Origin: Candidatus Omnitrophota bacterium
GTDB taxonomy: Bacteria; Omnitrophota; Gorgyraeia; Pluralincolimonadales; Pluralincolimonadaceae
Direction of reading: 5' to 3'
Length of the DNA stretch: 64,000 nt
NCBI GenBank assembly: GCA_041651455.1
Contig: JBAZJG010000001.1
Span: 146,535 to 210,534, forward strand
Below the pieces are notes generated by a model. That model had not been told where the DNA came from, did not search any database, and saw only the letters and a list, made by a program, of their open reading frames with translations. Below are positions 1 to 39,379 of the stretch, one piece after another. Every line of letters begins with the position of its first letter. Position 1 is the first letter of the stretch. Made by a program: the position numbers and the translations under genes.

Positions 1-46
1 CATAGTAAAGTTTTCCGGGTTATTCCTGATACCGGTCATAACCTGG

Positions 47-1237
47 GTGTTATACATCTGCAGGAAGGAGAAAGCAATATTTACACGCTTCAAGTATGCG
101 TGGATATACCCTTCGGTAGTCGGAGCCGCCGCCGTGTTATTCGCTGTTATCCTGCTCTGCGGGTATGTTCGCAAGTCGACTGGTATGACATGGTGCGACG
201 AGTACGGGCTATGGGGAGGGATAGTGCAGAGCAGGATAGGCATTATTGCGGTATTGATCGGGGCCCTGTCATTATTTCTATCGGCGGTATTCAAAGTAAT
301 GAAGATCGGCGATGACATTAATTCATCGGCCATGATCGTTACCGCGTATTTCGTTCTCTTCGTAATGGTGTTCGGCTTTAGGTGGCTGGTTGACCCTTCC
401 CACCTGATATTGTCCTACGCGCCTCTCGGAGCGGTATCCACAGGATCCCCTTTTGCTGCCGCGATAGCGCAAAAAGGGCTTATCGCGGCTCTCTTTGATA
501 ATTTCGCGTATAAGGTGCGCATATTGGACCCTATTATTTTCTGGTTGTTCGTGATGTATATGGTCCTGGAATTAATATCCCTGCGTAACGGCGGTTGGTA
601 TACGGACAAACAATCGAAGAAGAGGATAGCGCTGCTTGTATTCTGCCTCCCCGCATTGTTGCTTATGGTATCTATGCTAAAGTTCGAAAAGCACCATATG
701 GTCCCATTCTTTGTCGTGATGAGCATCCTCTCCATGAAGGGGATATCAATGGCGTGGTCGTACGCCGTAAAGGCGAAATGGCTGAAGCCCGCCCTCGCCG
801 CCGTTTTTACGATACTGCTCGCGTATGATGTTTACGGTAACGCGGAGGTTACTGTCAGGGATTGCCTCGTCCGATCAAAACAGCAATATGATGTTTCGTA
901 TGAAGTCGATAAATGGCTCGAAGAGAACATCGATGAGGATGCTGTTATAGCCGCAGGGCATTATATCCATGTCTATATACCTCCGCGGTATAAGAACGTA
1001 AAGGTATTCGAAGGTTACGGCAAGGATAGCGTAAAGGAACTGCGGAACATCGTAAAGGTATATAAACCTTCTGCGATATACTACAATGCCGGACCGAGCG
1101 GGGCTGAACCGCTGCCATCAGTCGGGGAGATGTTGCCGGAGGTGAAAGTAAGGTTATTGAAGGAGTTTGACGGCTCGGGCAGGATGTACCAGCGCAAGCA
1201 GGGCGACAGGTTCCTTATATATGAAATCGTACGTTAA
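47..1237 (+). CDS. Polytopic membrane protein with C-terminal soluble domain. It may be the C-terminal portion of a GT-C-type glycosyltransferase. The frame is open to the window edge, so the gene may be 5'-truncated.
   Basis: GTG at 47. There is no in-frame stop between nt 2 and 47. Several hydrophobic helices are followed by a ~150-aa hydrophilic tail. Confidence 0.4.
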   Translation: MLYICRKEKAIFTRFKYAWIYPSVVGAAAVLFAVILLCGYVRKSTGMTWCDEYGLWGGIVQSRIGIIAVLIGALSLFLSAVFKVMKIGDDINSSAMIVTAYFVLFVMVFGFRWLVDPSHLILSYAPLGAVSTGSPFAAAIAQKGLIAALFDNFAYKVRILDPIIFWLFVMYMVLELISLRNGGWYTDKQSKKRIALLVFCLPALLLMVSMLKFEKHHMVPFFVVMSILSMKGISMAWSYAVKAKWLKPALAAVFTILLAYDVYGNAEVTVRDCLVRSKQQYDVSYEVDKWLEENIDEDAVIAAGHYIHVYIPPRYKNVKVFEGYGKDSVKELRNIVKVYKPSAIYYNAGPSGAEPLPSVGEMLPEVKVRLLKEFDGSGRMYQRKQGDRFLIYEIVR

Positions 1238-3468: not shown

Positions 3469-4368
3469 ATGCAGACCGTAGATTTTCTCGTTATAGGGGC
3501 GAACGGATTGGTGGGGAGGCGCGTCCTGTCATTGCTGAAGGCAAAAGGGGAAAGCGCGTCAGGTACATATAACAGGCGCGCCGAGGGCGGGCTCATTCCC
3601 TTTGATATAACGGATGGGGCATCGGCCAGGCGGATATTCAAGGACCTTGCGCCGAGACGGGTGTACCTTTGTGCTAACCTGCCAGGCGGAGTTGACTATT
3701 GCGAGAAAAACCCGGCGCAAGCCCGCAGGTTCTATTATGACGCGACCGTGAATATCGGTAACTTGTGCGGCGAGTCCGGCGCATCCCTAATATTCATCTC
3801 CACGGACTATGTATTTGACGGATCTAAGGGGCCTTATAAGGAGGAGGACGGAAAGAACCCCCTCAATCTTTACGGCCGGCTGAAGCTTGAGGCCGAGGAA
3901 TGGATCCGGAAAAACATGGAAAAGCACATAATAGCCAGGACAACAAATGTTTTCGGATGGGATCCGCAGACCGTAACGCCTAATTATGTAATGAACCTTT
4001 ACATGACTTTAAGGTCAAGCAAATTATTCAATGCGCCGTCATATCTATGGGGTAACCCGACGTACGCGGGGGACCTTGCAGCAGCGCTCATAGAACTGTC
4101 GGATTGTAATGCCTCGGGCATATTTCATGTGGTCGGCGGCAGTTTCGTGAACAGGTATGAGTGGGCTCTCGAGGCATGCAGGGCGCTGGAGCTGGATGCA
4201 GGGCTTATAAAAGAAGTCAAGGATCCCCCGCAGAACGCAGTTCCGCGCCCGTTAAAATCATGGCTTGGAACGGATAAATTCCGCGGCTCTTTCAAGACGG
4301 TATTGCATGGCATGAAGGAAGGCCTTGCTCTTATGAAGGAAGAGTCAGATAAGGACGATGGGAGATAA
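3469..4368 (+). CDS. RmlD-like NAD(P)H-dependent 4-keto-6-deoxyhexose reductase
   Basis: ISTDYVFDG...LNLYGRLKLEAEE matches the RmlD substrate-binding region. N-terminal GANGLVG Rossmann motif. Confidence 0.65.
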   Translation: MQTVDFLVIGANGLVGRRVLSLLKAKGESASGTYNRRAEGGLIPFDITDGASARRIFKDLAPRRVYLCANLPGGVDYCEKNPAQARRFYYDATVNIGNLCGESGASLIFISTDYVFDGSKGPYKEEDGKNPLNLYGRLKLEAEEWIRKNMEKHIIARTTNVFGWDPQTVTPNYVMNLYMTLRSSKLFNAPSYLWGNPTYAGDLAAALIELSDCNASGIFHVVGGSFVNRYEWALEACRALELDAGLIKEVKDPPQNAVPRPLKSWLGTDKFRGSFKTVLHGMKEGLALMKEESDKDDGR

Positions 4369-5263
4369 TTTGCCCCTATTCACGGTGGTCATCTCGACCT
4401 ATAACAGGAAGCACGTCCTGCCGCGCGCGATATCGAGCGTGCTGGGGCAGACGTGCGGGGATTTCGAGCTCATAGTGATAGACAATGGCTCCACGGACGG
4501 CACGGAGGCCGCCGTCAGCGCGATAAAAGACCCGAGGATAAAATACATCAGGAACCCAGAACCGACCTCATCCTGCGACGGGCCGCGCAACATGGGCATA
4601 GAAATGGCCAAAGGAAGCTACATCGCGTTCCTCGATGACGATGACATCTGGTATCCGCAGCGCCTCGAGAAAGTAAAAGAAGCGTTCGATAGCGACCCGG
4701 GAGTATCCGCCGTATGCCACAACGAGAACAGGAATTACAAGGGCAAAGTCGACAAGGTACTCGAGTACGGGCCTTGGTCCGATGATATATATGAGCGGTT
4801 GCTTTATGATGGCAACTGCCTCTCGTCCTGCGCGACGACCGTGAAGAAGGGTGTGTTCGACAGGTTGGGAGGTTTTGACCTGAGGCAGGAATACGCAGCT
4901 GCGGCGGACTACGATTTCTGGCTTCGGATGACGGGCAACGGAGCGAAGGTATGTTTCATTAAGGAACCCCTCGGCGAGTTTGGCTATACGGGTAAGAATT
5001 GGAGCTCGGCGGATCCAGCTTTCCAATCAAGGATAGCGGCGTTAATAAGGGACCATATCGTCAATCATGAGAACAAACCGGTAAGCGGCATATCAGATAA
5101 GGGTATGCTGCGGCTGATCAAATTGTACATCATAGCATCGAAGTCTTTTTTATCGGCATTCAGGATAACAGATGCGCTCAAATACCTGATGATGGCATCG
5201 CAGCTCACCGTTAAAAGACCTCATCTGATCGTAAAATTGCCGTCAGGGGGCGGGAGAAAATGA
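4358..5263 (+). CDS. Glycosyltransferase family 2
   Basis: VVISTYNRKHVL...LIVIDNGSTDGT...FLDDDDIWYP. GT-A fold with DxD. Confidence 0.7.
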   Translation: MGDNLPLFTVVISTYNRKHVLPRAISSVLGQTCGDFELIVIDNGSTDGTEAAVSAIKDPRIKYIRNPEPTSSCDGPRNMGIEMAKGSYIAFLDDDDIWYPQRLEKVKEAFDSDPGVSAVCHNENRNYKGKVDKVLEYGPWSDDIYERLLYDGNCLSSCATTVKKGVFDRLGGFDLRQEYAAAADYDFWLRMTGNGAKVCFIKEPLGEFGYTGKNWSSADPAFQSRIAALIRDHIVNHENKPVSGISDKGMLRLIKLYIIASKSFLSAFRITDALKYLMMASQLTVKRPHLIVKLPSGGGRK

Positions 5264-6408
5264 AGAAACGCATGGCTATCGCTATAATATCGTGCTGCGC
5301 AGTTATAGCGGTTGTTTTCCCGTTTGCGATGCTTGCAAACAAGTATACTGCATATTTCGCCTACAAGGAAATAACCTATAAGACTATGGCCGATAGTATA
5401 GCCGGCGGGCCGGGTGGGCCCGAAGAAGAAGCGACTCGCATCAGCAGTTATCTTCACCGGCACTTGTTCACGCCTTTCGGGGCTCAGGCTGTAGATAAAG
5501 ACACCTATAACGATATCATCAGGGGAATAGCCTATTGTGACCAGAAAGCCTGGGGGATGTCCGCTTTTCTCGCGAAACGTGGTATAGACAGCAGGATGGT
5601 GATGACGGTAAATCCCGACGGCCAGTCTAACCATACCATTTTGGAGGTCGATATAGAGGAAGGATGGAGATATTATGATCCTCAGTACTCCCTTGTTATA
5701 CGCGGGAAGGACGATGAGCTTGCGTCATACAGTGATATATGCAGGGAACCGTCGCTACTGGTCAATTCTCACAGGATGCGCCTGCTGAAGAAGGCTTGCC
5801 CTGCGGAGTACGGGATTATTAGCAAGTACCTGGAAAAGAACGTGTTCAATCCGGGAATCATAAAACCGATAGTATGGAACAGCTCCGCCAAAAGCAAGGG
5901 AGGCGCAGCACGCGTTTTGTCGCGAGTATTAGATGTTTATGTCACGATCTTCGGTAGTAAATTTTCCCGCCTCTACCAGGATGCATATCTGGGCGTATAT
6001 TCCGGAAAGGGCGGCCATAATGCCGATTATCTGCTCGCGAGAAATTACGATATCTATGGAAGATATGATAAAGCGGTTCATTATTACAGGAAGTTCATCA
6101 GGAATTCTTCTTCAGATGACGAAAGGTATCCCGCTATGTTGTTCCTTTCGATCGTATATACAAAAAAAGGGGATTATAAAGCCGCGATTGACACCCTCAA
6201 GGCTATGATAGAGGAGACGGGGTCATCGAAATGGGCGTCGTCCATATATTATTGGCTCGGTTATAATTATGAGGCCCGGAATGAAGCGGAAAAAGCCGCT
6301 GATTGTTACAGAATCTCCATCAGGGAACACGTGAAGTCGGGGAACCCTTCTGACGCGATAAAACTGCTCGAACTGGATTCATTCGAAAGGCTTGCGGAAT
6401 TGGAATGA
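5260..6408 (+). CDS. Membrane-anchored transglutaminase-like (papain-like Cys-His-Asp) domain protein with C-terminal TPR repeats
   Basis: N-terminal TM helix. GIAYCDQKAWGMSAFLAKRGI...SNHTILEV...YYDPQY is the transglutaminase-like core. The C-terminus is TPR-like (YYRKFI..., YNYEARNEAEKAADCY). Confidence 0.55.
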   Translation: MKKRMAIAIISCCAVIAVVFPFAMLANKYTAYFAYKEITYKTMADSIAGGPGGPEEEATRISSYLHRHLFTPFGAQAVDKDTYNDIIRGIAYCDQKAWGMSAFLAKRGIDSRMVMTVNPDGQSNHTILEVDIEEGWRYYDPQYSLVIRGKDDELASYSDICREPSLLVNSHRMRLLKKACPAEYGIISKYLEKNVFNPGIIKPIVWNSSAKSKGGAARVLSRVLDVYVTIFGSKFSRLYQDAYLGVYSGKGGHNADYLLARNYDIYGRYDKAVHYYRKFIRNSSSDDERYPAMLFLSIVYTKKGDYKAAIDTLKAMIEETGSSKWASSIYYWLGYNYEARNEAEKAADCYRISIREHVKSGNPSDAIKLLELDSFERLAELE

Positions 6409-8234
6409 AGATAAAACCGTTTATCGTATCTTCAATTATATACGCATCGGCCTCGCTATTATTGCTTGTTAATGTGGCGGCTGGAGAAGGATTATACGAG
6501 AGCTGGGACACGGCCAGGTATATAGCCATATATTTGCTTATCTCGATACTGTATTTTACGAAGATAAGGTATTCTCGCGGGGTAAATATCGCAGAAGGAA
6601 TTATATCTTCCGTAATATTCAGCCTGGGAGCGATGCTTATAAGGATGAACGGCGTATTGCTGGACCTGTCATCTCCGATGAAGATACAGAAGGTATATTT
6701 CCTGGTCATGCTGTTCTCATTCATATGCTTAGTGTATGTTTTATCAATGAAAAATGCAGCTGCCGCGATTCGGCGGGCGCGCGGACACGGCTTCTACCTG
6801 ACGTTCCATTATATAGCGCTTATCCCGTATGCCATATATGAGTTGTGCGTGCAGGGAGGGTTTCGCGGTTGTATTGTATTGGGCGCCGCGCTAGGTATTT
6901 CGGTGGCGACTATATATTTATTGCGTATCAGGCGCATTCGCGAAGCGATAAAAGGGATGGCTTATTACCTTTGGGATGCAAAACGGTTTCTTGTGATCGT
7001 ATTTATATTCGCTATTGCGGCCAGGGTCATGTTCGCGTTCCAGCTCACAAGGAACCTTCCGGAGGGCTTTATGGAAGGCCCGGACACGCAGGAGATCCAC
7101 GATGAATCCGTCGAGTTGTCGAGGAACTGGGATATACTAGACGGCAAGCCGGTCTTCCTTAACCAGAAGGGTTCCGCGATAATATTCTACGCCGTTATAT
7201 ATAAGGTATTCGGCGCGGACCCTCTCTATGGCCGGCTCGCGGATGCGCTCCTCAACGCGCTATGCGTTCTGATGGCGTTCTATATCGCGGATAAACTGTT
7301 CGGGCGCGCCGCCGCAAGGATAGCCGCGCTGCTCGGGGCAGGCTACGGATACCTGATACAGTACGGGGTGTATATTGGGACGGAATCGATCGGGCTCTTT
7401 TCGCTGATGCTGTTCGTGTGCGGGATCATAGCGGCGGGGGAGTCAGGAGGGATATCCTGCGGGATATCCTGCGGGATAAGGTCGCATGCGCTCGCGGCGG
7501 TATCGGGGCTTGGCCTTGCAATATGCGTAATGGCCAGGTCGGAGTATTATTATGCGATAGTGCCTTCGCTCATATGGGCCGCCTGGTCGTTAAGGAGGCA
7601 AAAAGCTGCCATAGCGTCGTTCATAGTGAGCTTCGGAGTACTGGCGGCCTTATGGTCATGGAGGAACATGATTGCGTTCGGCGATTTTACCATCTCGCAA
7701 CTGCTGAGCCCCGCGTTCAAGGATGAATGGATGGGGCAGCTCTGGCAGTTCGAGAAAGGCAGGTTCGCGGAGGCTGGCATAGCGGTAACAGGCGTGGGGA
7801 GTATGTTCGCGCAGCTGCTCCTGCATCCGGAGGCCGCGTTCGGAATATTGATGCCGCACATCGCAAAAGGATTCTATAACTTCTGGGATTACAACGTATT
7901 CTTCACGCCGGCATTTATATTCCTTGAGCCGAAGAACTCCTGTTATAATATGACGCTGTGTTTGTACCTGTACATGTTCATGCTGCTCGGGATGCTGATC
8001 AGGCCATGCAGGAGGGGGGCGTCTCTTTTTCTCGCGTTCATCATAATCTTCAAGACGGTAAGCTACATATTCACTACTACGCCGACGTTTTATGAGAACG
8101 GCGCCGTCACGGCGCTATTCAAGGACTGGTACCGTTTCACGATAATCCCGTTCACTCATGTGTTCATGGGGGCCGGGATAGCGTGGCTGATATCAAGGGC
8201 GCGTGACGCAAAAACAGGGAAGGCAAAAGCATGA
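6405..8234 (+). CDS. Polytopic membrane protein. The C-terminal ~400 aa are GT-C-like (ArnT/PMT_2 layout). There is an extra ~200-aa N-terminal membrane domain.
   Basis: Periplasmic-loop acidic motif (GPDTQEIHDESVEL) followed by YAVIYKVFGADPLYGRLADALLNALCVLMAFYIADKLFG, as in GT39/GT83. Many TM helices. ATGA overlap with the upstream gene. Confidence 0.5.
   Translation: MKIKPFIVSSIIYASASLLLLVNVAAGEGLYESWDTARYIAIYLLISILYFTKIRYSRGVNIAEGIISSVIFSLGAMLIRMNGVLLDLSSPMKIQKVYFLVMLFSFICLVYVLSMKNAAAAIRRARGHGFYLTFHYIALIPYAIYELCVQGGFRGCIVLGAALGISVATIYLLRIRRIREAIKGMAYYLWDAKRFLVIVFIFAIAARVMFAFQLTRNLPEGFMEGPDTQEIHDESVELSRNWDILDGKPVFLNQKGSAIIFYAVIYKVFGADPLYGRLADALLNALCVLMAFYIADKLFGRAAARIAALLGAGYGYLIQYGVYIGTESIGLFSLMLFVCGIIAAGESGGISCGISCGIRSHALAAVSGLGLAICVMARSEYYYAIVPSLIWAAWSLRRQKAAIASFIVSFGVLAALWSWRNMIAFGDFTISQLLSPAFKDEWMGQLWQFEKGRFAEAGIAVTGVGSMFAQLLLHPEAAFGILMPHIAKGFYNFWDYNVFFTPAFIFLEPKNSCYNMTLCLYLYMFMLLGMLIRPCRRGASLFLAFIIIFKTVSYIFTTTPTFYENGAVTALFKDWYRFTIIPFTHVFMGAGIAWLISRARDAKTGKAKA
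7449..7478 (+). repeat. Perfect tandem 12-nt repeat (GGGATATCCTGC x2.5) inside the CDS, encoding GISCGISCGI
   Basis: Seen directly in the sequence at 7449-7478. Confidence 0.9.
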
Positions 8235-13273: not shown

Positions 13274-14706
13274 GGAAGGCCTTGATACCGGCGGCCGGGA
13301 AAGGCATAAGGGCATATCCTAAGAGCAGGTATATTCCGAAGACACTCCTCGAGATAGAAGGAAAACCCCTGATCGAGAATAATATAGCGATATTGAGGGA
13401 CCAGCTAGGGATAAAGGACATTACCGTAATCGTGGGGCACCTTGCCGATAAGATAAAGGCACGGCTCGGGGATGGGAGCCGGCTTGGGGTGTCGGTAAAG
13501 TACGTGGATTGCGGCGATCCCGACGAGGGCCTCGCGAAAGGCATACTGCTGGCAGAGAAGGAGTTCAACGAGCCGTTCATATGTATGCTGGGCGATGAGT
13601 ACTACTTCGGCTCCAACCATTCCGGGCTCGCGAAGATCCCTGCGGATGCCGGCTATGTCTGCGCGGTCAAACATTCGTCCGACATAAAGTCCATCAAGAA
13701 AAATTATAACGTCGAGATAGAGGGCGGGTTCGTCAGCAGGATAATCGAGAAGCCGGCCGAGATCAGGCAATGGAACCTCGGGTGCGGGACATACCTGCTT
13801 AGGCCCGAGATATTCGGCCTGATACGCAGGACAAAGCCGTCCCACAGGAGCCATAAGGTCGAATTCATGGATTCGCTCGACCTCGCCGTGCAGGAAGGCG
13901 CGAAGGTGAAGCCGTACTACCTCGAAGGCATATACTATAACATCAATACCATCGAAGACGTGAACCAGTGCAATTATGATATCCGTTCGCTGAATTTCGG
14001 CAAATACAAGGTAAGCGTCGTGATACCCGCGCATAATGAGGAAGCGACCATAGCTACCGTCATCGAGGACCTGCGGCAGCACGTCGACGAGGTGCTTGTA
14101 GTCAATAACGGCTCGAACGACAGGACCTCCGAGGTCAGCAGGAAGGCCGGCGCGAGAGTCGAGGAGGTCTCGTTGAAGGGCTACGGCGACACTATAAAGC
14201 ACGGCCTCGAAAAGGCGTCCGGCGACATATTCATCGTGACCGAGGCGGATTATTCGTTCCGGTCTAAGGATATAGGCAAGTTCCTCGAGTACATAAAAGA
14301 TGCCGACATGGTCATTGGCACGCGGACGACGCGGCAGCTCGTTGAACAGGGGGCGAACATGAGCCTGATGCTGCTGCTCGGGAACCTTGTATACGCGAAG
14401 ATAGTCGAGATCCTCTGGTGGGGCATCGACCCGCCGCGTTTTACCGATGTCGGCTGCACCTACAGGGCCATTTGGAAGAGCTCTTTCGAGAAGATAAAAG
14501 GCGACCTGAGGTCTACGGGGCCGGAATTTTCCGTCGAGATGATGATAAAGACGCTCAAATACAAACTGCGCGTCCTTGAGATACCGATATCGTATTACCC
14601 GCGCCTCGAAGGCGTATCGAAACATTCGAAGAACTGGTTCGGCATCCTGAGGACCGCCTCGAGGATGATGCGCCTTATAATAAGAGAAAGGCTGGACAAC
14701 AGGTGA
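13255..14706 (+). CDS. Two-domain fusion: an N-terminal sugar-1-phosphate nucleotidyltransferase domain and a C-terminal GT2 (DPM1-like) domain
   Basis: LIPAAGKGIRAYPKSRYIPKTLLEIEGKPLI is the NTP-transferase G-loop. From ~aa 250: VSVVIPAHNEEATI...LVVNNGSNDRTSE...TEADYSF, a GT2 domain. ATG at 13255 with an AAGGAGG RBS. The longer 12973 start is rejected because it overlaps the upstream membrane-protein gene for 300 nt. Confidence 0.6.
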   Translation: MQEHTIRKALIPAAGKGIRAYPKSRYIPKTLLEIEGKPLIENNIAILRDQLGIKDITVIVGHLADKIKARLGDGSRLGVSVKYVDCGDPDEGLAKGILLAEKEFNEPFICMLGDEYYFGSNHSGLAKIPADAGYVCAVKHSSDIKSIKKNYNVEIEGGFVSRIIEKPAEIRQWNLGCGTYLLRPEIFGLIRRTKPSHRSHKVEFMDSLDLAVQEGAKVKPYYLEGIYYNINTIEDVNQCNYDIRSLNFGKYKVSVVIPAHNEEATIATVIEDLRQHVDEVLVVNNGSNDRTSEVSRKAGARVEEVSLKGYGDTIKHGLEKASGDIFIVTEADYSFRSKDIGKFLEYIKDADMVIGTRTTRQLVEQGANMSLMLLLGNLVYAKIVEILWWGIDPPRFTDVGCTYRAIWKSSFEKIKGDLRSTGPEFSVEMMIKTLKYKLRVLEIPISYYPRLEGVSKHSKNWFGILRTASRMMRLIIRERLDNR

Positions 14707-16151
14707 AGCGCGCGATAAGGAAAGCGCTGCTCTGCTATCCGCCGGTGGGGCTGTTCCAGAGGGGCGAGGAGAGGTGCCAGGCGGATATCGAGGGCTCGGC
14801 GACACAGGCGCCTCATGCACCGAACGACCTCGGGTATATCGCAGCGTGCCTCGGGAGGCTCGGGACCGGATGCGTCATAAGGGATTATCCGGCCGAGGGG
14901 ACGACCGAAGAGGCGGTACTGGAAGAGGTAAAGGCATACTCGCCGGACCTTGTGCTTATCAGTACGACTACGCCTACGTTCCCCGAGGATGTCCGGTTCC
15001 TCGAAAAAGTGAAGTCGGCGCTGCCGGGCGCGTTTACCGTCGCGAAGGGAAGCTGTTTCTGCTCGCTTCCTCTGGATGAACTGCGGAAGAGCGAATACAA
15101 GCCGCTCGACGCTGCCATTTACGGGGAAGCCGAGTTCATAATAGAAGACCTTGTGAATGCTCTCGCAGCGGGCGAGCCTATCGACGGCATAAGCGGGATA
15201 ATAGTAAATATAGGCGATAGGGGTGCGGCAAGGACCGCGCGCCCCCAGTTCCGCGAAGACCTCGATTCCCTTCCGTTCCCGGCGAGGGGCCTGATGAATA
15301 ACGGGCTCTACAGGAACCCGCTTACCGGCAGGCCGATGGCTACGATCCTTGTGTCCCGCGGGTGCCCGTCCCAGTGCATATTCTGCCTAACCCCGGTCAT
15401 ATCCGGGCATAAGTTCAGGAAGAGGTCCGTCGGCAACGTCCTCGATGAGATAAGGGATTGCGTCAAGAATTACGGCATCAGGGATTTCTTCTTCCGCGCC
15501 GACACCTTTACCATGGATAATGGATACGTGAAACAGCTGTGCGGCAGGATAATCGGGGAAGGCCTCAAGATAACATGGGTGGCCAACAGCAGGGCCGACG
15601 TCGTGGACAAGGAACTGCTCGCGGTGATGAAAGCGGCGGGATGCGCGCTCGTAGCGTTCGGGTTCGAGTCCGGCAACGAGGATATACAGCGCAAGGTCAA
15701 GAAGAACGCTTCCGCGGATGACGCGCGCCGCGCGGTAAGGTTATGCAAGGAAGCCGGCCTGAAGACACTCGGGTTCTTTATGATAGGTTTCCCTTGGGAC
15801 GACGAGAAGACGGTAGAGGACACGGCCGCTCTCGCAAGGGAGCTCGACTGCGATTTCATAGAAGTGCATATAGCGCTGCCGTTCGAGGGCACGGAGCTTA
15901 ACGACATATGCCGGGACCTCGGGCTAATAAAGGAGACATCGGTCGGGTACAACTATTTCTCCAATCCGTACGGCGGCGGGACACTGCACCTTAGCAGTGA
16001 ACGCCTGGTGCAACTCAGGAAGGATATCATAAAGAGGCAGTACCTGCGGCTGCCGTACATATTCCGCATGCTTACGAACTGCGGCTCTTTTTATGAATTC
16101 ATGAACTATATAAAGTACGGTTTCAGGCTCATCGGAAAGGTCGCGCGTTGA
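14703..16151 (+). CDS. B12-binding-domain radical SAM enzyme (class B; probable cobalamin-dependent methyltransferase)
   Basis: N-terminal B12-binding-like Rossmann domain. CPSQCIFC (CxxxCxxC) radical SAM motif. GTG start overlapping the upstream stop (GTGA). Confidence 0.7.
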   Translation: MKRAIRKALLCYPPVGLFQRGEERCQADIEGSATQAPHAPNDLGYIAACLGRLGTGCVIRDYPAEGTTEEAVLEEVKAYSPDLVLISTTTPTFPEDVRFLEKVKSALPGAFTVAKGSCFCSLPLDELRKSEYKPLDAAIYGEAEFIIEDLVNALAAGEPIDGISGIIVNIGDRGAARTARPQFREDLDSLPFPARGLMNNGLYRNPLTGRPMATILVSRGCPSQCIFCLTPVISGHKFRKRSVGNVLDEIRDCVKNYGIRDFFFRADTFTMDNGYVKQLCGRIIGEGLKITWVANSRADVVDKELLAVMKAAGCALVAFGFESGNEDIQRKVKKNASADDARRAVRLCKEAGLKTLGFFMIGFPWDDEKTVEDTAALARELDCDFIEVHIALPFEGTELNDICRDLGLIKETSVGYNYFSNPYGGGTLHLSSERLVQLRKDIIKRQYLRLPYIFRMLTNCGSFYEFMNYIKYGFRLIGKVAR

Positions 16152-17278
16152 GGAAGATATCGTTACCGGCATATGAGGCCTCGCGCTGCCGCCTGTACGC
16201 GCTGGGCAGGAACGCGATGTATGCCGCGTGCAGGGCCTTCGGCCTGAAGGAGGGCGACGAAATATTGACGCCCGCATTCGATTGCGACGGGTCCCTGCAG
16301 CCGTTCAGGGCGCTCGGGCTGAAACTGAAGTTTTACCGCTCGGACCCGTACACCTTCGAGGCGGATACGGGCGATATGGAGAAAAGGATGGGACCGTCAA
16401 CAAGGATGGTCCACGTAATCAACCATTTCGGGATGCCCCAGCCGTGGGGCAGGATAAAGGGGATCTGCGGGGCCTTAAGGGTCCCTGTCATGGAGGACTG
16501 CGCATATTCGCTGTTCTCAGACGGATTCGGAACGAACGGCGACGCCGCGATATTCTCGCTGAGGAAGAACCTGCCGATGGTAGACGGCGGGATGCTCCGT
16601 ATGAACAACGGAAATTTCGCGCTGGGCCGTCAGGCAGAACGCGCGCCTCTGTTCTACAGGACGGAATCGGCAAATGTCCTGACATTGATCAAATCGGCCA
16701 TGGGATATTATAAGGCGCCCGAAGGGCTCAGGCGTATTCTAAGGAAGGCCAATCCCGCGGTGGAACCTCCTCCGCCTTTGTATTCGGAGAAGGAGAAAGG
16801 GTATCCCGAGTGGCCCCTGCGCGACCATACGGGGGAAGAGTTTAGCTGCGGCTATGAAAGGCCCATCTCCGCGCTGGCGAGGTTCCAGCTGGAAGGCCTG
16901 CCGGAAGGATATTATAAAAATGCCGCGGAGACGAAACGGCGTTATTATTCGGAGCTCGCCGGGAAGTTCGCCGGATTGAACGGGATACGGGTTCTCTGGC
17001 CGGAACTTCCGGAAGGCATAGTCCCTTTTTGCCTTTCCGTATTAATTAACCGGGACAGGGACCGCATTTTCGCGGAATTGAGGAAGAAATATGATGTGAT
17101 GGCCTGGCCGACGCTTTCGCGGGAAGTCATCGACCGGCTTGGCGAATACCCGGAAGTGGAGATCCTCGGCAGGAAGGTCCTGCAGTTCAACCTGTCGGCA
17201 GACAAGGTCATGAGGCGGGATTACCCGCAGTATATAGGCAGGCTCGCGGACGATTTTACCGCGTTAACGGTGAGATAG
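16148..17278 (+). CDS. DegT/DnrJ/EryC1-type PLP-dependent sugar aminotransferase-like protein with a shortened N-terminus
   Basis: GRNAMYAACRAFGLKEGDEILTPAFDCDGSL...LKLKFY matches the DegT GRSAL...GDEVI.P.FTF motif but begins at aa ~18. A possible catalytic Lys is in FSLRKNLP. TTG start (TTGA overlap). Confidence 0.5.
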   Translation: MRKISLPAYEASRCRLYALGRNAMYAACRAFGLKEGDEILTPAFDCDGSLQPFRALGLKLKFYRSDPYTFEADTGDMEKRMGPSTRMVHVINHFGMPQPWGRIKGICGALRVPVMEDCAYSLFSDGFGTNGDAAIFSLRKNLPMVDGGMLRMNNGNFALGRQAERAPLFYRTESANVLTLIKSAMGYYKAPEGLRRILRKANPAVEPPPPLYSEKEKGYPEWPLRDHTGEEFSCGYERPISALARFQLEGLPEGYYKNAAETKRRYYSELAGKFAGLNGIRVLWPELPEGIVPFCLSVLINRDRDRIFAELRKKYDVMAWPTLSREVIDRLGEYPEVEILGRKVLQFNLSADKVMRRDYPQYIGRLADDFTALTVR

Positions 17279-29121: not shown

Positions 29122-29133
29122 GTGAGGGTAAAA

Positions 29134-30978: not shown

Positions 30979-30993
30979 AAAGGAGCGGGCAAA

Positions 30994-34058: not shown

Positions 34059-35849
34059 GTGGCTTATGTTTACCTTTTTTTAACCGCTTTTTCAATAGCG
34101 TTCCTTGCGACCCCGGTCGTTAAGGCGGCGGCATGCCGCCTCGGTATCGTCGCGAAGCCGAAAGAAGACAGGTGGCATAAGAAAGTGATACCGCTGATGG
34201 GCGGCATCGCGATATTCGCGGCGTTCATGGCGACCTACCTTGTATTCATGCGCGGCGGGAAGATCAATATGGGGCTCGTAGTGGGCGGCACATCGATATT
34301 CCTGCTTGGTGTTGTAGACGATATCAGGGGCCTGAGCCCCCAGTCGAAGCTTGTCGGGCAGATCATATGCGCCTCGCTGGCAGTGATGTTCGGCGTCTCG
34401 ATAAAGGTAATACCGTTCGCCGCGATATCGGTCCCGCTTACGATCCTCTGGATGGTCGGGATCACGAATTCATTCAACCTTCTTGATAACATGGACGGGC
34501 TGTCGGCGGGCGTTACGGCGATAGCGTCGTTGACGATCTTCGCATGCTCGCTCGCGCTGCACAATTACGAGATAGCGATGGTATCGCTGATAATGGCCGG
34601 CGCCTCGCTCGGTTTCCTGCCGCATAATTTCTATCCCGCGAGGATCTTTATGGGCGACTGCGGCGCGATGTTCCTCGGTTTTACGCTGTCGGCGCTTACG
34701 ATAATGGGCACATGGAAAGAGGTCTCGCACCTTTTCCTCGTCCTGCTCGTCCCTGTGCTCGCGCTGGCCGTCCCGATATTCGATACGCTCTTCGTCGCTA
34801 TAACGCGCACGATAGACGGCAGGTCTGTCGCAAAAGGCGGCAAGGACCATACGTCGCACAGGATGGTCTTCCTCGGATGGCAGGAGAGGAAGGCGGTCAT
34901 GGTGCTTTACTCGATATCGATCCTGTTCGGCGCCGCGGCATATATATCGCTCCACGTGAAGATATACGTAAGCGCCGTCATTATGTCGCTGCTCGTGCTG
35001 GTCATCTCGGTGTTCGCGATATTCCTGAACCATTCCACTATGTCAAGGCGCTCATCGAGGCAGCCCGGCGATAAAGAAGTCTCGTTTTACAAGAACGAAT
35101 CCGAGCTGATAGAAGCCCTGGTAAAATACAAGAGGGTCATATTCGAGGTAATATGCGATTTCATCCTGATATGCCTCGCGTACATGTCGAGCTATATAAT
35201 GAGGTACGAGGGGATAATAGACCATTATAATTTCGGGCTTATAGCTAAATCGCTGCCGATAATTATCGTGATAAAGCTGCTGGCCTTTTCCGTAAGCGGC
35301 GTATACGGGAACATCTGGCGGTATATAGGGCTCAACGAGTTGATCAATATCGTGAAGGGCATAACATTGGGCTCTATAGCGTCGGTCGTGGTCATGGTCA
35401 TCGCATTCAGGTTCGAAGGATTTTCGAGGATGATATTCGTACTCGACGCGATGGTCCTGCTGATACTGATGTCGGCCGTAAGGATAGCTTTCAGGATATT
35501 CAGGGAACAGCTGTTCGTCTCATTCGAAGGCCAGGGCAGGAGGGTCCTCATATTCGGCGCCGGGGACGCGGGTGACGCGTTCCTGCGCGAGATAAGGAAG
35601 AACAGGTCGCTGAACTACCGCCCGATAGGTTTTATCGACGACGACCTCTCGAAACAGGGACGAAGGATACAGGCCGTCCCGGTGCTCGGCGTGAGGTCGG
35701 ATATACCGAGGCTCGTGGAGGAGAAGAATATAGACGAGATAATTCTTGCGATCCCGTCCGCGGACAATAAGACCAAGGATGATATTGAAGCCATATGCAG
35801 GGAGAGCGGCGCGGAGTACCACCAGATAAGCGGGATATACCTTAAGTGA
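34059..35849 (+). CDS. Fusion: WecA/MraY-family polyprenyl-phosphate N-acetylhexosamine-1-phosphate transferase (PNPT) with the WbpM/PglF-type N-terminal 4-TM plus Rossmann-like (CoA-binding-like) domain
   Basis: NSFNLLDNMDGLSAG is the PNPT signature. The C-terminal 260 aa have TM helices then RVLIFGAGDAGDAFLREIRKNRSLNYRPIGFIDDDLSKQGRRIQAVPVLG...IILAIPSA. GTG start. Confidence 0.65.
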   Translation: MAYVYLFLTAFSIAFLATPVVKAAACRLGIVAKPKEDRWHKKVIPLMGGIAIFAAFMATYLVFMRGGKINMGLVVGGTSIFLLGVVDDIRGLSPQSKLVGQIICASLAVMFGVSIKVIPFAAISVPLTILWMVGITNSFNLLDNMDGLSAGVTAIASLTIFACSLALHNYEIAMVSLIMAGASLGFLPHNFYPARIFMGDCGAMFLGFTLSALTIMGTWKEVSHLFLVLLVPVLALAVPIFDTLFVAITRTIDGRSVAKGGKDHTSHRMVFLGWQERKAVMVLYSISILFGAAAYISLHVKIYVSAVIMSLLVLVISVFAIFLNHSTMSRRSSRQPGDKEVSFYKNESELIEALVKYKRVIFEVICDFILICLAYMSSYIMRYEGIIDHYNFGLIAKSLPIIIVIKLLAFSVSGVYGNIWRYIGLNELINIVKGITLGSIASVVVMVIAFRFEGFSRMIFVLDAMVLLILMSAVRIAFRIFREQLFVSFEGQGRRVLIFGAGDAGDAFLREIRKNRSLNYRPIGFIDDDLSKQGRRIQAVPVLGVRSDIPRLVEEKNIDEIILAIPSADNKTKDDIEAICRESGAEYHQISGIYLK

Positions 35850-37324
35850 GCGCCGGGAAAAGCAGGGTATGTTCCGGATGCGACAAATTCATAGAGTACC
35901 TGCTCTACACGCTCTTCTTCTTCATCTCATCGTCAAAGAGCGTCCTCGAAGTGTTCGCTACGATAGCTATCCTCATATGGTTATTCAAGAAATCCTATGA
36001 ACTAAGGGAGCGGATAAGGGCAAAGGCGGAATCGTTCAGCATGACGCGTGCAAGCGCAAGATCTTCCGTCATCTTCGCGCTTATAGGCGTCCTGACGATG
36101 GTAATGGTCTATGTCGCTATCGTGGTCACGATGGGGATAGCTACAAAACATACCGCGCCCGGCGTTAACCTTCTGGCGCCCGCACATTTCATTCCTATCG
36201 TGCTGATCGCGGCGGTCCTGCTGGCGATGTTCTATATAGTCATATCCTCGGTCATGCACTCCTTGCGACTGGATGCCGGCATAAAGGCGTCGTCCGTCTG
36301 CTACCTGCTCGTGGCTATAATCACGTCGGCATTTACCACCGGAAATCTTGCCATAAGCGCAGGGGCCCTTATGTTCAAGACGATGGAATATTTCCTGCTG
36401 TTTATCGTGATAGCGGATGTCATAAATACGAGGGAGAAGCTAGCGCGTTCCGTACTGGCCTTCATATTCCCGGCATCGATAGTGGGACTGGACGGCCTCT
36501 ATCAGTATTATTCCGGCCACGACCTGTTCAGGCATTTCCCGCTCTTCGAGAAGATAAAGGTCACCGCTACTTTCAAGTTCTCGAACAGCGCGGGAACCTT
36601 CTTCGCAACGGTACTGCCGCTTCCGCTTTCGCTATTCATGATGAACACATTCCGAGGCAGTAAGAGGGCGCTGCTTGCGGTTTCGATCGCCGTCATATTC
36701 GCGTGCCTGATGCTGACACAGGCAAGGGCCGCCTGGCTCGGGTTCGCCTCCGCCTTCATATTCCTCTGCGTTATTTCCGGCAAGAAGAGGTTCTATGCGC
36801 TGCTCGCATCGTTACTGGTAGTAGTAGCGCTGCTTGCCGTCGCCGGGCCGCAATCGCTGAAGGACCAGATAGGTTCGCTTGTGAATATAGGAAGGGACCA
36901 GTCGAGCAAGGACAGGCTTCTGATCTGGGAGACGGGCTGGAGGATGTTCATGGACAGGCCTGTATTCGGGCACGGGCTGGGAACGTTCATGAGCGTCTTT
37001 GAAAAATACAGGCCGGCAGGATACAGCGAGATCGTTTATGCGCATAACTGCCTGCTGCAGGTGGCGGCGGAAACGGGTATTGCCGGCGTCCTCGCGTCCT
37101 TATGGATAGCGGCAGCAATGTTCATATCGGGATTGAAGAATTATTTCAGGGAAAAGGACGTTTCTACAAGGGCAGCGTATATAGGGTTCATCGGCGGCCT
37201 GCTCGCAACGATGGTCAACAGCCTTTTTGACACAAACCTGTATTCACTTCCGCTGGCAGTCCTGTTCTGGTCGGTCGCTGGGTTGTCGGTGGCTAAGACT
37301 GAATACGGACAGCCGGAAAATTGA
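35846..37324 (+). CDS. O-antigen ligase / Wzy_C-domain polytopic membrane protein (WaaL-like)
   Basis: AAWLGFASAFIFL...RLLIWETGWRMFMDRPVFGHGLGTF is the characteristic Wzy_C periplasmic loop. GTG start (GTGA overlap). Confidence 0.6.
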   Translation: MSAGKSRVCSGCDKFIEYLLYTLFFFISSSKSVLEVFATIAILIWLFKKSYELRERIRAKAESFSMTRASARSSVIFALIGVLTMVMVYVAIVVTMGIATKHTAPGVNLLAPAHFIPIVLIAAVLLAMFYIVISSVMHSLRLDAGIKASSVCYLLVAIITSAFTTGNLAISAGALMFKTMEYFLLFIVIADVINTREKLARSVLAFIFPASIVGLDGLYQYYSGHDLFRHFPLFEKIKVTATFKFSNSAGTFFATVLPLPLSLFMMNTFRGSKRALLAVSIAVIFACLMLTQARAAWLGFASAFIFLCVISGKKRFYALLASLLVVVALLAVAGPQSLKDQIGSLVNIGRDQSSKDRLLIWETGWRMFMDRPVFGHGLGTFMSVFEKYRPAGYSEIVYAHNCLLQVAAETGIAGVLASLWIAAAMFISGLKNYFREKDVSTRAAYIGFIGGLLATMVNSLFDTNLYSLPLAVLFWSVAGLSVAKTEYGQPEN

Positions 37325-38301
37325 AACCTCAAAACATCCTTCTCATAAGGACCGACAGGATTGGGGAGTTCATCCTGACGACGCCCGCAATAAGTGCTTT
37401 CCGCGCAGGATTCCCCGACGCCAGGATAACACTTGCCGTATCCGAGGCTTCATACGAGGCGGCGGAAGGTAATCCCTCCGTAGACTCAATAATAAAGCTA
37501 GATCCCCAAAGCGACCTTGATTCACCGGCCAAAATGGCAAGGTTCATAATCTCGTTGAGGAAGCAGCGGTACGAGATGTGCGCGGTATTCAACCCGAACA
37601 AAGCGGTGAATGCCGCCGTATTCCTTGCGGGTATACCGGTAAGGATAGGGTATGACAGGAAGCTGGGATTTCTGCTGAACAGGGCCATAGAAGACAAAAA
37701 ATACCTGTGCGAAAAGCACGAGGTGGAATATAACCTCGACATCGCAAAGGCCGCGGGAATAGACGCGAAGCCGTCAAGGCCGGTATTTACGGTAAGTGCG
37801 GAGGACGAAAAGGCCGCGGCGCGCATTGTTGAAGAGAACGGTATCCATGCGGGAGAGAAATTCATAGCCGTGCATCCCGGCACGAGCAATCCCGAGAAAC
37901 TCTGGCCGGCCGAGAGATTCGGACGGCTTTGCGCGATGATTGAAAATGAAGCAGGCGCCAGCGCTGTCCTTGTCGGCGGGAAGGAGGAGAAGCCCATATC
38001 CCTCGAAGCGACCAAATGCTCAGGGAAACGGCTTTCCGATCTTACGGGGAAACTGGGGCTGAAGGAATTCGGCTCGGTCCTCAAGAAAGCAAAGGCGCTA
38101 ATATCCTGCGATTCGGGTCCGGTGCATATATCGGCCGCAGTTGGGACCCCGGTCATCGCATTGTTCGGGGAATCGAGGAAAGGCGGCTCATCCGTAAGGT
38201 GGGGGCCGTACGGCCGGGGGCACACGGTCATAGGCAGGCCAATGGTATGCGACATAACGGTCGAGGAAGTGTTCGAGGCGGTCAAAGGGATAAATGGCTA
38301 A
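37321..38301 (+). CDS. Glycosyltransferase family 9 (ADP-heptose:LPS heptosyltransferase-like)
   Basis: ILLIRTDRIGEFILTTPAISA. C-terminal GKLGLKEFGSVLKKAKALISCDSGPVHISAAVGTPVIALFG. TTG start (TTGA overlap). Confidence 0.7.
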   Translation: MKPQNILLIRTDRIGEFILTTPAISAFRAGFPDARITLAVSEASYEAAEGNPSVDSIIKLDPQSDLDSPAKMARFIISLRKQRYEMCAVFNPNKAVNAAVFLAGIPVRIGYDRKLGFLLNRAIEDKKYLCEKHEVEYNLDIAKAAGIDAKPSRPVFTVSAEDEKAAARIVEENGIHAGEKFIAVHPGTSNPEKLWPAERFGRLCAMIENEAGASAVLVGGKEEKPISLEATKCSGKRLSDLTGKLGLKEFGSVLKKAKALISCDSGPVHISAAVGTPVIALFGESRKGGSSVRWGPYGRGHTVIGRPMVCDITVEEVFEAVKGING

Positions 38302-39379
38302 GCAAAGGAAAATACTGATAATTAACCCGTTCGGCATCGGAGATGTGCTGTTCACGACGCCGGTCATAGAGTCGATAAAGCATGAGATAAAGGACTGCAG
38401 TATCGGATACCTCTGCAACCGCAGGACGGAACCGGTGCTGAGAGCCAACCCGAATGTCGAATGGGTATTCGTATACGAAAAGGATGAATTCAGGGAGCTC
38501 CGGAGGAAGTCGTTGTTCGGCTATATAAGGAAGCTGGTGTCCTTTATGATGGACATAAGGAGGAAAGGGTTCGATACCTCAATAGACCTCTCGCTTAACA
38601 GGGAATATGGCCTTATATGCCTGCTCGCGGGAATAAAGGAAAGGATAGGTTTCAATTACAGGAACAGGGGGTCATATCTTACAAAGAAGACCGATATTGA
38701 AGGCTACAGCGGAAAGCATGTCATCGAATATTATCTCGGCCTTCTGGAATCGGCGGGGATCAAACCTTCAGTGAAGAATATCGCCCTGTATATACCGGAT
38801 GAAGACAGGCAATGGGCGAAGAGATTCCTTGGCTCCAACGGTTTTATCGAAGGCGAGGTACTTGTTGGAATCGCCCCCGCCGGCGGGGAGAGCTGGGGCA
38901 AGGATGCCGGGATAAAGCATTGGAGGAGCGACGGCTATGCCGCGGCCGCCGACAGGCTTATAGAGGAAGCCAAGGCGAAAGTAATATTGCTTGGCAGCGC
39001 CGGTGAATCGTCTATCTGCGACGGGATCAAGGCCTCTATGCGCAACAGGCCGATCGAGGCGTACGGCAAGACGTCGTTGCTGCAGGCTGCTGCGTTGATG
39101 GCAGCATGCAGGCTCGTGATAGCGAATGACGGGGGCCCCCTTCATCTGGCCGTGGGCGCCGGGACACGGACTGTCGGGATATTCGGGCCGGTTGACGAGA
39201 ATGTTTACGGGCAATACCCGCGCGATTACGGCCGCCATAAGGCCGTGAAGGAGGAGATGTCGTGCCGCCCGTGCTACAGGGATTTCAGGATGAAGGATTG
39301 CGCCGAAAGGGTATGCCTGAGCAGGATAGAACCGGAAACGGTGTTCAAGGCGGCAATGGAGGCCCTGCAGAAAGGATGA
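38294..39379 (+). CDS. Glycosyltransferase family 9 (heptosyltransferase-like), second copy
   Basis: KILIINPFGIGDVLFTTPVI. LVIANDGGPLHLAVGAGTRTVGIFGP. Confidence 0.7.
   Translation: MAKQRKILIINPFGIGDVLFTTPVIESIKHEIKDCSIGYLCNRRTEPVLRANPNVEWVFVYEKDEFRELRRKSLFGYIRKLVSFMMDIRRKGFDTSIDLSLNREYGLICLLAGIKERIGFNYRNRGSYLTKKTDIEGYSGKHVIEYYLGLLESAGIKPSVKNIALYIPDEDRQWAKRFLGSNGFIEGEVLVGIAPAGGESWGKDAGIKHWRSDGYAAAADRLIEEAKAKVILLGSAGESSICDGIKASMRNRPIEAYGKTSLLQAAALMAACRLVIANDGGPLHLAVGAGTRTVGIFGPVDENVYGQYPRDYGRHKAVKEEMSCRPCYRDFRMKDCAERVCLSRIEPETVFKAAMEALQKG

Follow-up and report, generated by a model that had tools for sequence, protein, structure and literature searches.

A transglutaminase-like/TPR protein family in a surface-glycan cluster of Omnitrophota: candidate periplasmic enzymes of amide chemistry

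What does a membrane-anchored transglutaminase-like protein do in the middle of a bacterial glycan-assembly cluster? Chemical editing of bacterial surface glycans after export is poorly mapped, and WbmE, the periplasmic O-antigen uronamide deamidase of Bordetella bronchiseptica (King et al. 2009, PMC2615507), is essentially the sole example with a transglutaminase fold. The window, a stretch of 64,000 nucleotides from a Candidatus Omnitrophota bacterium, carries a gene for such a protein (hereafter TGL) between genes of a GT2 glycosyltransferase and a GT-C-like membrane protein (Table 1).

Table 1. Features of TGL and of the surrounding glycan cluster, in positions of the window
Feature	Position	Strand	Basis or remark
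GT2 glycosyltransferase, 301 aa, directly upstream of TGL	4358..5263	+	Pfam Glycos_transf_2, 115.5 bits
TGL gene, 382-aa membrane-anchored transglutaminase-like/TPR protein	5260..6408	+	Feature under study
N-terminal hydrophobic helix, about aa 5-25, behind MKKR	5272..5334	+	Hydropathy; positive-inside statistics; predicted models
Transglutaminase-like catalytic core, aa 42-141	5383..5682	+	C93 5536-5538, H125 5632-5634, D140 5677-5679
Family-specific helical subdomain of TGL, aa 150-250	5707..6009	+	Ends in the conserved FGxxF...QDxYL helix
TPR repeats of TGL, aa 254-361	6019..6342	+	Pfam TPR_2, TPR_8, TPR_6, TPR_14
Putative GT-C-fold membrane protein, 609 aa (PMT_2-like, 'GT39')	6405..8234	+	Start overlaps TGL stop (ATGA)
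NAD-dependent sugar epimerase/dehydratase, 319 aa; hexapeptide acyltransferase, 172 aa; GT2, 228 aa	8231..10396	+	Pfam; also in syntenic loci
Two further GT-C-like membrane proteins, 511 aa and 447 aa	10398..13273	+	
AsnB-like glutamine-dependent amidotransferase, 635 aa	27214..29121	+	Pfam Asn_synthase, 329 bits, and GATase_7
WecA-like initiating transferase; Wzy_C/O-antigen-ligase family protein; two GT9 heptosyltransferases	34059..39379	+	Pfam

The catalytic core of TGL matched the Pfam profile Transglut_core (PF01841) at 26.5 bits (gathering score 23), and the C-terminal part matched TPR_2 at 32.8 bits (threshold 27), with the three other TPR models likewise above threshold. In a Foldseek comparison with the PDB, the full-length model retrieved TPR matches only (the CTPR, YbgF, MamA and LapB structures), and the transglutaminase fold was examined with a domain-only model. 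This predicted model of the core shows the three-dimensional fold of the transglutaminase superfamily, and C93, H125 and D140 superpose in the alignment on the triad of 3ISR. The helical subdomain between core and TPR repeats was confidently modelled and is covered by no Pfam model. The N-terminal helix, which spans residues 2-26 in the models, has a net charge of +3.7 ahead of it and +0.7 behind it (n=103 family members) and lacks a good cleavage site. It would act as a signal anchor or, possibly, as a signal peptide that is cleaved off, and by the positive-inside rule the remainder of the protein is predicted to be periplasmic (N-in/C-out). A lipoprotein reading of the sequence IISC at residues 9-12 was rejected: this Cys is not retained across the family, and hydrophobic residues continue beyond it. 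The membrane anchor, the Cys-His-Asp core, the TPR tail and the ATGA overlap with the GT-C-like gene, as described in the original prediction from the bare sequence, were all borne out.

The alignment set beforehand as the decisive test of the triad included 152 diverse family members, and the catalytic residues are conserved in 94-99% of them (Cys in 150, His in 147 and Asp in 143). The flanking active-site residues D94, G89 and P141 are conserved along with the triad, the position two residues before the Cys is Gly or Ala in 143/152, the position preceding the Asp is mostly F/Y/V/L, and the spacing from His to Asp is 15 in 138 of 140 members. The helical subdomain is covered end to end in most members, with Q240 and D241 conserved where aligned. 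Among 108 members examined by profile, PF01841 was matched at E<=1e-3 by 61 and TPR models by about half, and the TPR residues R261, A272 and Y276 are at least 90% conserved. For back-translation a subset (A5) replaced the diverse alignment (A4), which proved too variable.

The family comprises 457 representative clusters, all members being derived from metagenomes, and ranges over Omnitrophota, Acidobacteriota, Gemmatimonadota, Elusimicrobiota and Planctomycetota-labelled genomes together with Firmicutes MAGs. One locus (L017), which gave a weak tblastn match, was dropped for want of a TGL open reading frame. The profile search with the family returned neither WbmE nor any Bordetella relative, and the literature searched yielded nothing specific on a polysaccharide system combining a transglutaminase-like protein with GT-C enzymes or with TPR repeats. 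Nor did the papers searched bear out the statement of the original prediction that such folds had been noted with multi-TM glycosylation proteins. Judged by sequence, the TGL proteins form a sizeable undescribed family of fixed architecture (anchor, transglutaminase core, helical subdomain and TPR repeats) with an intact active site.

How closely is TGL tied to its neighbours? The stop codon of the upstream GT2 gene overlaps the TGL start (ATGA), and orthologs of this GT2 precede TGL at four other loci (L001, L004, L005 and L009). Overlaps of 4 nt are the usual junction in this operon, with three in a row, including those on both sides of TGL. Translational coupling with the 609-aa GT-C gene had been proposed from the ATGA overlap. 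The overlap stands, but since it is the operon's normal junction it marks no special tie between the two genes.

The 609-aa protein consists of an N-terminal extension of about 190 aa followed by a GT-C-like core (aa 191-541, nt 6975-8027), with about 11 hydrophobic segments in all. It scored 17.4 bits with PMT_2, under the gathering score of 26.1. PMT_2 was matched by 9/9 of its homologs (best 2.8e-7), and hhalign aligned its family with above-threshold PMT_2+TPR proteins at 96% probability (E=3.6e-9). The family profile gave no match to PDB chain sequences. D227 (7083-7085), invariant in the family, corresponds in the alignment to the likewise invariant Asp in loop 1 of PMT_2 proteins and is a putative catalytic residue. 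The long GT-Cs adjacent to TGL at L036, L037 and L041 were rejected as members of this subtype (hhalign probability 0.7%).

Downstream, the epimerase, the acyltransferase and the 228-aa GT2 may together supply the GT-C enzymes with a polyprenyl-phosphate sugar as donor, by analogy with GtrB/ArnC. Both further GT-C-like proteins have 9 TM segments, the 511-aa protein without Pfam match and the 447-aa protein with a weak match to PMT_2. The WecA-like, Wzy_C and GT9 genes, hallmarks of LPS and O-antigen synthesis, share the unidirectional cluster of TGL, a glycan cluster of the LPS/O-antigen type.

Comparison of related loci separates TGL from any one partner. Homologous clusters at L006-L008 carry a 609-aa ortholog (45-60% identical) and lack the TGL gene altogether. 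At L010, L018 and L019, where the TGL relatives are 66% identical, the epimerase gene comes next and the 609-aa gene is absent, and at L005 a relative of 47% identity is followed by a homolog of the 511-aa membrane protein, not of the 609-aa protein. An obligate pairing of TGL with the 609-aa GT-C was therefore discarded. GT-C genes are nevertheless enriched near TGL, even against the glycan-rich local background. What is conserved of the association originally predicted is a looser tie, to the GT-C class in general.

In 5 other lineages an AsnB-like gene is found 2-6 genes away from TGL, and neighbourhoods with both GT-C and AsnB recur across unrelated phyla. The AsnB-like gene of the window is 21 kb (about 17 genes) away from TGL, no AsnB gene was found within 6-8 kb of the close relatives at L010, L018 and L019, and in about half of the lineages neither GT-C nor AsnB is near TGL; these neighbourhood statistics cover about 20 lineages, with open reading frames called heuristically and TM segments predicted crudely. 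A LysM-amidase gene adjoins TGL at L021. A clostridial subfamily is found outside glycan clusters, behind an SLH/CLIPPER surface protein, a setting suggesting that some of the family, at the least, may act on proteins and not on glycans.

For TGL we give about even odds to an active periplasmic Cys enzyme that tailors the cluster's glycan after export through an amide substrate; its most likely role, on the model of WbmE, is the editing of amide bonds, either in the exported glycan or in the carrier of that glycan. TGL would be tethered at the inner membrane by its single N-terminal helix with the catalytic domain in the periplasm, and the TPR module would serve as docking part. TPR modules commonly bind peptides or proteins rather than glycans. 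In the proposed mechanism Cys93 would be the nucleophile, forming a thioester by attack on the carbonyl of an amide in the exported glycoconjugate, while His125 would serve as base and be oriented by Asp140. Either water (giving deamidation or amide hydrolysis) or an amine would then resolve the thioester. The likeliest substrate would be a sugar carboxamide or an N-acyl amide that had been introduced in the cytoplasm, perhaps by the AsnB-like amidotransferase of the cluster; from the precedent of WbmC/I/Z (PMC2615507), this protein is a candidate for the synthesis of sugar carboxamides and hence of a possible TGL substrate. TGL may work alongside GT-C enzymes, which would use lipid-linked donors to decorate the same polymer at the periplasmic face.

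A less probable reading, to which we give perhaps one-fifth of the weight, is that TGL is a cysteine protease of the HvyA or LapG kind with a regulatory or processing function, switching or trimming the production of surface glycan. It would cleave a periplasmic or membrane protein, perhaps the GT-C encoded next door, a component of glycan assembly, or an acceptor glycoprotein bound by the TPR repeats. Three observations argue against it: TGL did not match the BTLCP profile (PF06035) at E<=0.1, no conserved candidate protein substrate was found beside TGL in diderm lineages, and the recurrent AsnB-like genes would be left unexplained.

It is rather unlikely that TGL is a true transamidase, using the sugar carboxamide made by AsnB as a glutamine-like, pre-activated acyl donor to be joined to an amine. 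The amine could be a protein lysine, an amino acid, a sugar with a free amino group or a diamino acid of peptidoglycan, with TGL placed next to GT-C enzymes and the acceptor held by the TPR tail; AsnB would spend ATP on the uronic-acid carboxamide in the cytoplasm and the extracytoplasmic step would be ATP-free. This scheme is entirely inferential, its candidate acceptors are hypothetical, and for WbmE, the only precedent acting on a glycan, hydrolysis is the one activity demonstrated (PMC2615507). If it were true, amide cross-links, amide-linked substituents or anchors, or amino-acid-amidated uronic acids would be formed outside the cell without ATP, and deamidation by WbmE would be just the hydrolytic side of the same chemistry.

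Similarly improbable is an incidental adjacency, in which TGL would serve another envelope process, such as remodelling of peptidoglycan or S-layer, and be inserted in a variable glycan island. The clusters that dispense with TGL (L006-L008), the varying partner at L005 and at L010, L018 and L019, the LysM-amidase neighbour, the clostridial subfamily, and the transglutaminase-fold isopeptidases PeiW and PeiP, which act on the cell wall, are all consistent with it. The 4-nt overlaps on both operon sides of TGL, the enrichment of GT-C genes and the recurrence of GT-C and AsnB in unrelated phyla speak against it. Least plausible is a non-catalytic scaffold or chaperone, an option allowed by the original prediction, in which the TPR tail and an inactive transglutaminase fold would organise or stabilise the GT-C enzymes: the TPR module, the membrane anchor, the GT-C adjacency and yeast Cyk3, whose transglutaminase-like domain reportedly regulates the chitin synthase Chs2, could be cited for it, but inactive transglutaminase-like domains typically lack the triad, and that of TGL is conserved together with D94, G89 and P141.

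Under the preferred reading, a post-export tailoring enzyme, the occurrence of this family beside GT-C and AsnB-like genes offers a concrete hypothesis of periplasmic amide chemistry on glycans, and may bear on the making or tuning of amide-substituted uronic acids in O-antigens. It would also allow a better annotation of proteins now called merely 'tetratricopeptide repeat protein'.

Among known systems, peptide:N-glycanase (PNGase), a cytosolic eukaryotic enzyme acting on the GlcNAc-Asn linkage, is kin to TGL in fold only. TgpA of Pseudomonas aeruginosa (PMC3507681; PDB 6G49/6G4H) has six TM helices with a central periplasmic transglutaminase domain, an architecture not shared by TGL; it is a 688-aa essential protein without TPR, encoded outside glycan clusters, whereas TGL has 382 aa and a single N-terminal helix. 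The small 228-aa GT2 and the GT-C enzymes of the window would fit the model of donor synthesis and periplasmic transfer known from GtrABC and ArnC-ArnT. In contrast to the window cluster, those systems have no transglutaminase-like component; the GT-Cs of the window match PMT_2 weakly, and the 609-aa protein differs by its additional N-terminus.

The precedents WbmE and HvyA, like the co-occurrence of AsnB-like genes, were absent from the original prediction. HvyA, a regulator of the Caulobacter capsule in the BTLCP family together with LapG, needs its triad for function (PMC4241560). It resembles TGL as an accessory or regulatory Cys-His-Asp enzyme of a surface-polysaccharide locus, periplasmic in its case and predicted so for TGL, and differs in being a soluble PF06035 protein without TPR. 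WbmE (triad C165/H201/D216) can be compared with TGL at the level of the transglutaminase superfamily, with the same His-to-Asp spacing of 15. Its signal peptide is cleaved to give a soluble protein, while the helix of TGL has no good cleavage site; WbmE has no reported TPR tail and no reported GT-C partner, and the amidotransferase gene of the window lies 21 kb from TGL. Both genes lie within an LPS O-antigen locus that also carries glutamine-dependent amidotransferase(s), WbmE is exported to the periplasm by an N-terminal hydrophobic segment, as is predicted for TGL, and the accessory tailoring by WbmE, dispensable for polymer synthesis, is the step to which the action of TGL may be likened.

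Both predicted reading frames, for the 382-aa protein (hereafter TGL) and the 609-aa membrane protein directly 3' of it, were found as originally given, in a window rich in plus-strand genes arranged in a long run (ORF listing). The record identical to TGL, on a 230-kb contig of a Candidatus Omnitrophota MAG, is annotated merely as 'tetratricopeptide repeat protein'. A transglutaminase (TGase)-like Cys-His-Asp core had been proposed, and on every feature tested TGL belongs to the transglutaminase-like superfamily. In Pfam, Transglut_core matched aa 42-141 with 26.5 bits (gathering score 23), and several TPR models scored above threshold over aa 254-361. The proposed triad C93/H125/D140 is invariant across eight close homologs, with identity down to 47%. 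At E<=1e-3, an exhaustive profile search using the N-terminal 250 aa as query gathered a family of 457 representative clusters, 160 of them also at <=1e-10; most members are 340-410 aa long and aligned over the entire module. Among 152 aligned members, the triad Cys is retained in 150, the His in 147, Asp140 in 143, and Asp94, next to the catalytic Cys, in 148; Gly or Ala occupies position Cys-2 in 143, and His and Asp are spaced 15 apart in 138 of 140. With a 27-sequence profile, the triad aligned in a match (E=2.8e-5) to PDB 3ISR, a putative cysteine protease of TGase-like type. Transglut_core was found in 61 of 108 members and TPR models in about half of them (Pfam). TGL falls outside BTLCP (PF06035) in Pfam and does not have the TgpA-type architecture.

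The predicted N-terminal membrane helix and C-terminal TPR also hold for the family, 136 of the 152 members carrying a lone N-terminal hydrophobic helix. The net charge is +3.7 in the short N-tail versus +0.7 in the 15 residues past the helix (103 members); under the positive-inside rule, this charge difference would place the catalytic core and the TPR in the periplasm. No good AXA site is conserved; an anchor and a cleaved signal both fit. A family-specific helical subdomain (aa 150-250), for which there is no Pfam model, sits between core and TPR and closes with a conserved FGxxF...QDxYL helix; in the TPR, R261, A272 and Y276 each reach at least 90% conservation across 108 members. Since helix, core, subdomain and TPR features recur across members, their arrangement (anchor, TGase core, helical linker, TPR) is a trait of the family. 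All members are metagenomic or unannotated, save a 167-aa fragment of the clostridial subfamily in cultured Pseudobacteroides cellulosolvens.

The overlap of the TGL stop with the ATG of the GT-C-like gene is real but is no special mark of this pair, because three successive junctions share it; ATGA is the operon's ordinary junction. Co-occurrence of the pair was likewise upheld in part. Among loci of relatives in other genomes and metagenomes (L and P numbers), the order GT2, TGL, 609-aa GT-C, epimerase, hexapeptide transferase, GT2 (228 aa) and the 511-aa and 447-aa GT-C-like proteins is preserved, with the same overlaps, in the nearest relatives (L001, L002, L004 and L009; 65-78% identity), but the pair is broken elsewhere. 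L006-L008 keep 609-aa orthologs (45-60% identity) in unchanged gene order with the TGL gene missing, GT2 overlapping GT-C directly in L006. In L010, L018 and L019 (66% identity) GT2 and TGL are followed by the epimerase, the 609-aa homolog being missing, and in L005 (a 47% relative) the gene after TGL encodes a homolog of the 511-aa membrane protein (50% identity) and not of the 609-aa protein. TGL is therefore a dispensable, accessory and movable component of the window-type cluster. In L007, genes for an rve-family transposase and an N6/N4 DNA methylase immediately precede the TGL-less GT-C cluster, a border that fits mobile or variable glycan islands.

The GT-C-like identity proposed for the 609-aa partner is supported by its family. 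Its own PMT_2 score lies below threshold (17.4 versus 26.1); all nine family members matched PMT_2 (best 2.8e-7), and in one source a homolog is labelled 'glycosyltransferase family 39'. By hhalign, the family aligned with above-threshold PMT_2+TPR proteins (96% probability, E=3.6e-9, aa 191-541), its invariant D227 falling on their invariant loop-1 Asp. About 11 hydrophobic segments were counted in the protein, which also bears an additional N-terminal extension of about 190 aa; it had no sequence match in the PDB and is best called a putative divergent GT-C-fold enzyme.

Neighbourhoods were compared at 9 loci from species-representative genomes (labelled Omnitrophota, Planctomycetia, Acidobacteriota, Gemmatimonadales, Elusimicrobia and Syntrophomonadaceae) and 31 from metagenomes, forming 23 lineages at 60% identity, 20 of them informative. 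In 10 of the 20, a gene no more than two positions from TGL encodes a protein of 400 aa or longer with six or more TM segments (nine GT-C-like, one flippase-GT2 fusion). Against the 26% expected from the loci's own glycan-rich genes (7.2% multi-TM, 4 slots), the binomial p is 0.018, a value to be read in light of the small sample, the heuristic calling of ORFs and the crude prediction of TM segments. The GT-C gene is found upstream or downstream of TGL, often overlapping it, and these GT-Cs do not form a single orthologous subtype (hhalign). In Acidobacteria-type loci a GDSL/SGNH-like hydrolase gene lies between the two, a hint that the glycan may be edited at both acyl and amide groups.

In Pfam, about 1-44 kb of the window forms a single unidirectional surface-glycan cluster, including nucleotide-sugar enzymes, B12/radical-SAM proteins, DegT, FemAB-like GNAT, polysaccharide deacetylase, many GT2 and GT4 genes, an AsnB-like gene, a WecA-like initiating transferase, a Wzy_C/O-antigen-ligase family protein and two GT9 heptosyltransferases. 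It represents an LPS/O-antigen-type region in a diderm genome. Within it, the epimerase, hexapeptide transferase, 228-aa GT2 and GT-C proteins form a block that resembles, and may perform, Gtr/Arn-type periplasmic decoration from polyprenyl-phosphate donors. The first ORF, listed from 47 and open to the first base, represents the 3' portion of a gene for a larger multi-TM protein, probably a fourth GT-C-like gene; the same position is taken by a 631-aa relative in L009 (26% identity, 9 TM) and by a 611-aa PMT_2 protein in L001. The B12-binding radical-SAM enzymes, whose copy number differs among otherwise syntenic clusters, may be sugar C-methyltransferases. A row of DegT aminotransferase, FemAB-like GNAT (Acetyltransf_6), polysaccharide deacetylase and GT2 recalls the Arn logic (acylate, lipid transfer, de-acylate), and its product could be a sugar that is aminoacylated or has a free amino group. 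Also inside the cluster, a 571-aa protein with roughly five hydrophobic segments had no Pfam match. An unusual GT1-DUF218 fusion (618 aa) precedes a DUF4330 protein. Nearly all long ORFs of the window (1-64000) are on the plus strand, GC skew is positive in all 2-kb bins and cumulative skew climbs monotonically; the cluster ends at about 44.4 kb, followed by housekeeping genes (PriA, PGK, SBP_bac_5 protein).

Coordinates of TGL, its partner and neighbouring features in the window and in related loci
Feature	Location	Strand	Basis or remark
TGL gene	window 5260-6408	+	382 aa
609-aa protein gene	window 6405-8234	+	GT-C-like
ATGA, GT2/TGL	window 5260-5263	+	direct sequence reading
ATGA, TGL/GT-C	window 6405-6408	+	direct sequence reading
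ATGA, GT-C/epimerase	window 8231-8234	+	direct sequence reading
C93 codon	window 5536-5538	+	proposed triad Cys
H125 codon	window 5632-5634	+	proposed triad His
D140 codon	window 5677-5679	+	proposed triad Asp
First ORF	window 1-1237
B12-binding radical-SAM	window 14703-16151; L001 1135-2604, 7557-9101		extra copies in L001
DegT to GT2 row	window 16148-20403
571-aa protein	window 21340-23055
AsnB-like amidotransferase	window 27214-29121		Asn_synthase 329 bits + GATase_7 (Pfam)
GT1-DUF218, DUF4330	window 29122-31485
Transposase/methylase border	L007 110-3529
PMT_2+TPR neighbour	L014/L030/L047		Pfam, above threshold
PMT_2 neighbour	L041; L012, L028, L037		Pfam; weaker in last three
GT87 neighbour	L029		Pfam
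GDSL/SGNH-like hydrolase	L012 9058-10161; L023 7058-8161; L028 1042-2064
AsnB-like homolog	L012/L023/L028 (L012 12548-14659)		+4 from TGL
AsnB-like homolog	L041/L043 (L041 7006-8832)		+4 from TGL, +1 from second paralog
AsnB-like homolog	L037/L046 (L037 10435-12330)		+6/+2 from TGL
Asn_synthase-domain protein	L036 8680-10041		+3 from TGL
AsnB-like gene	P0181		-3 from TGL; independent locus
TGL paralogs	L041 2182-2940, 5965-6990		252 aa, 341 aa
Clostridial subfamily	L049 838-4554; L050 5827-9504; L051 755-4503; L052 3439-7155

The TgpA paper (PMC3507681) led to WbmE (PMC2615507), a periplasmic TGase-superfamily protein (C165/H201/D216) encoded in a Bordetella O-antigen locus, which deamidates uronamide residues on completed LPS and whose locus has three Gln-dependent amidotransferases; AsnB-like genes were therefore predicted to accompany TGL. 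Homologs of the window AsnB-like protein near TGL share 34-46% identity with it, and an AsnB-like gene lies within six genes of TGL in 5 of about 25 lineages, 4 of these 5 also having a GT-C neighbour. AsnB-family genes usually number just a few per genome, and those near TGL thus look enriched. Their position 2-6 genes off TGL in unrelated lineages suggests a conserved GT-C/TGL/amidotransferase module. In L041, and equally in L043, two TGL paralogs of one operon bracket genes for a GT4 and a PMT_2 GT-C; an AsnB-like gene comes next.

By analogy with all characterised members of the TGase fold, which act on peptide, isopeptide, glycosyl-amide or carboxamide bonds, Cys93 would form a thioester with an amide substrate. 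We put at about even the chance that TGL is an accessory enzyme which works after export, as an amidase or transamidase, on the cluster's glycoconjugate. WbmE-like carboxamide deamidation would be the likeliest single chemistry, and the TPR tail would dock a partner (acceptor, carrier protein or GT-C). An HvyA/LapG-like protease with a protein target is rather unlikely; protein substrates are kept in play by a clostridial subfamily (about 320 aa) that always lies just downstream of a CLIPPER+SLH surface protein of about 856 aa, and substrates therefore probably vary among family members. These clostridial loci (L049-L052) lack a nearby GT-C or AsnB gene, and a sulfatase/LtaS-like gene recurs around them. 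A true cross-linking transamidase is improbable, and we assign a similarly low chance to TGL being an incidental neighbour in service of another envelope process. The non-catalytic module entertained in the original prediction, a mere scaffold, is disfavoured by the conserved triad and highly improbable.

No description of a TGase-like/TPR family tied to GT-C enzymes was found in the literature searched; the family is real, sizeable and uncharacterised, and yields a testable hypothesis. Periplasmic TGase-fold enzymes in surface-glycan loci already have precedents, of which TGL is a variant. Like WbmE, TGL is a TGase-superfamily protein encoded in an O-antigen-type locus together with amidotransferase gene(s), and it is this genomic context that argues for a possible WbmE-like role.
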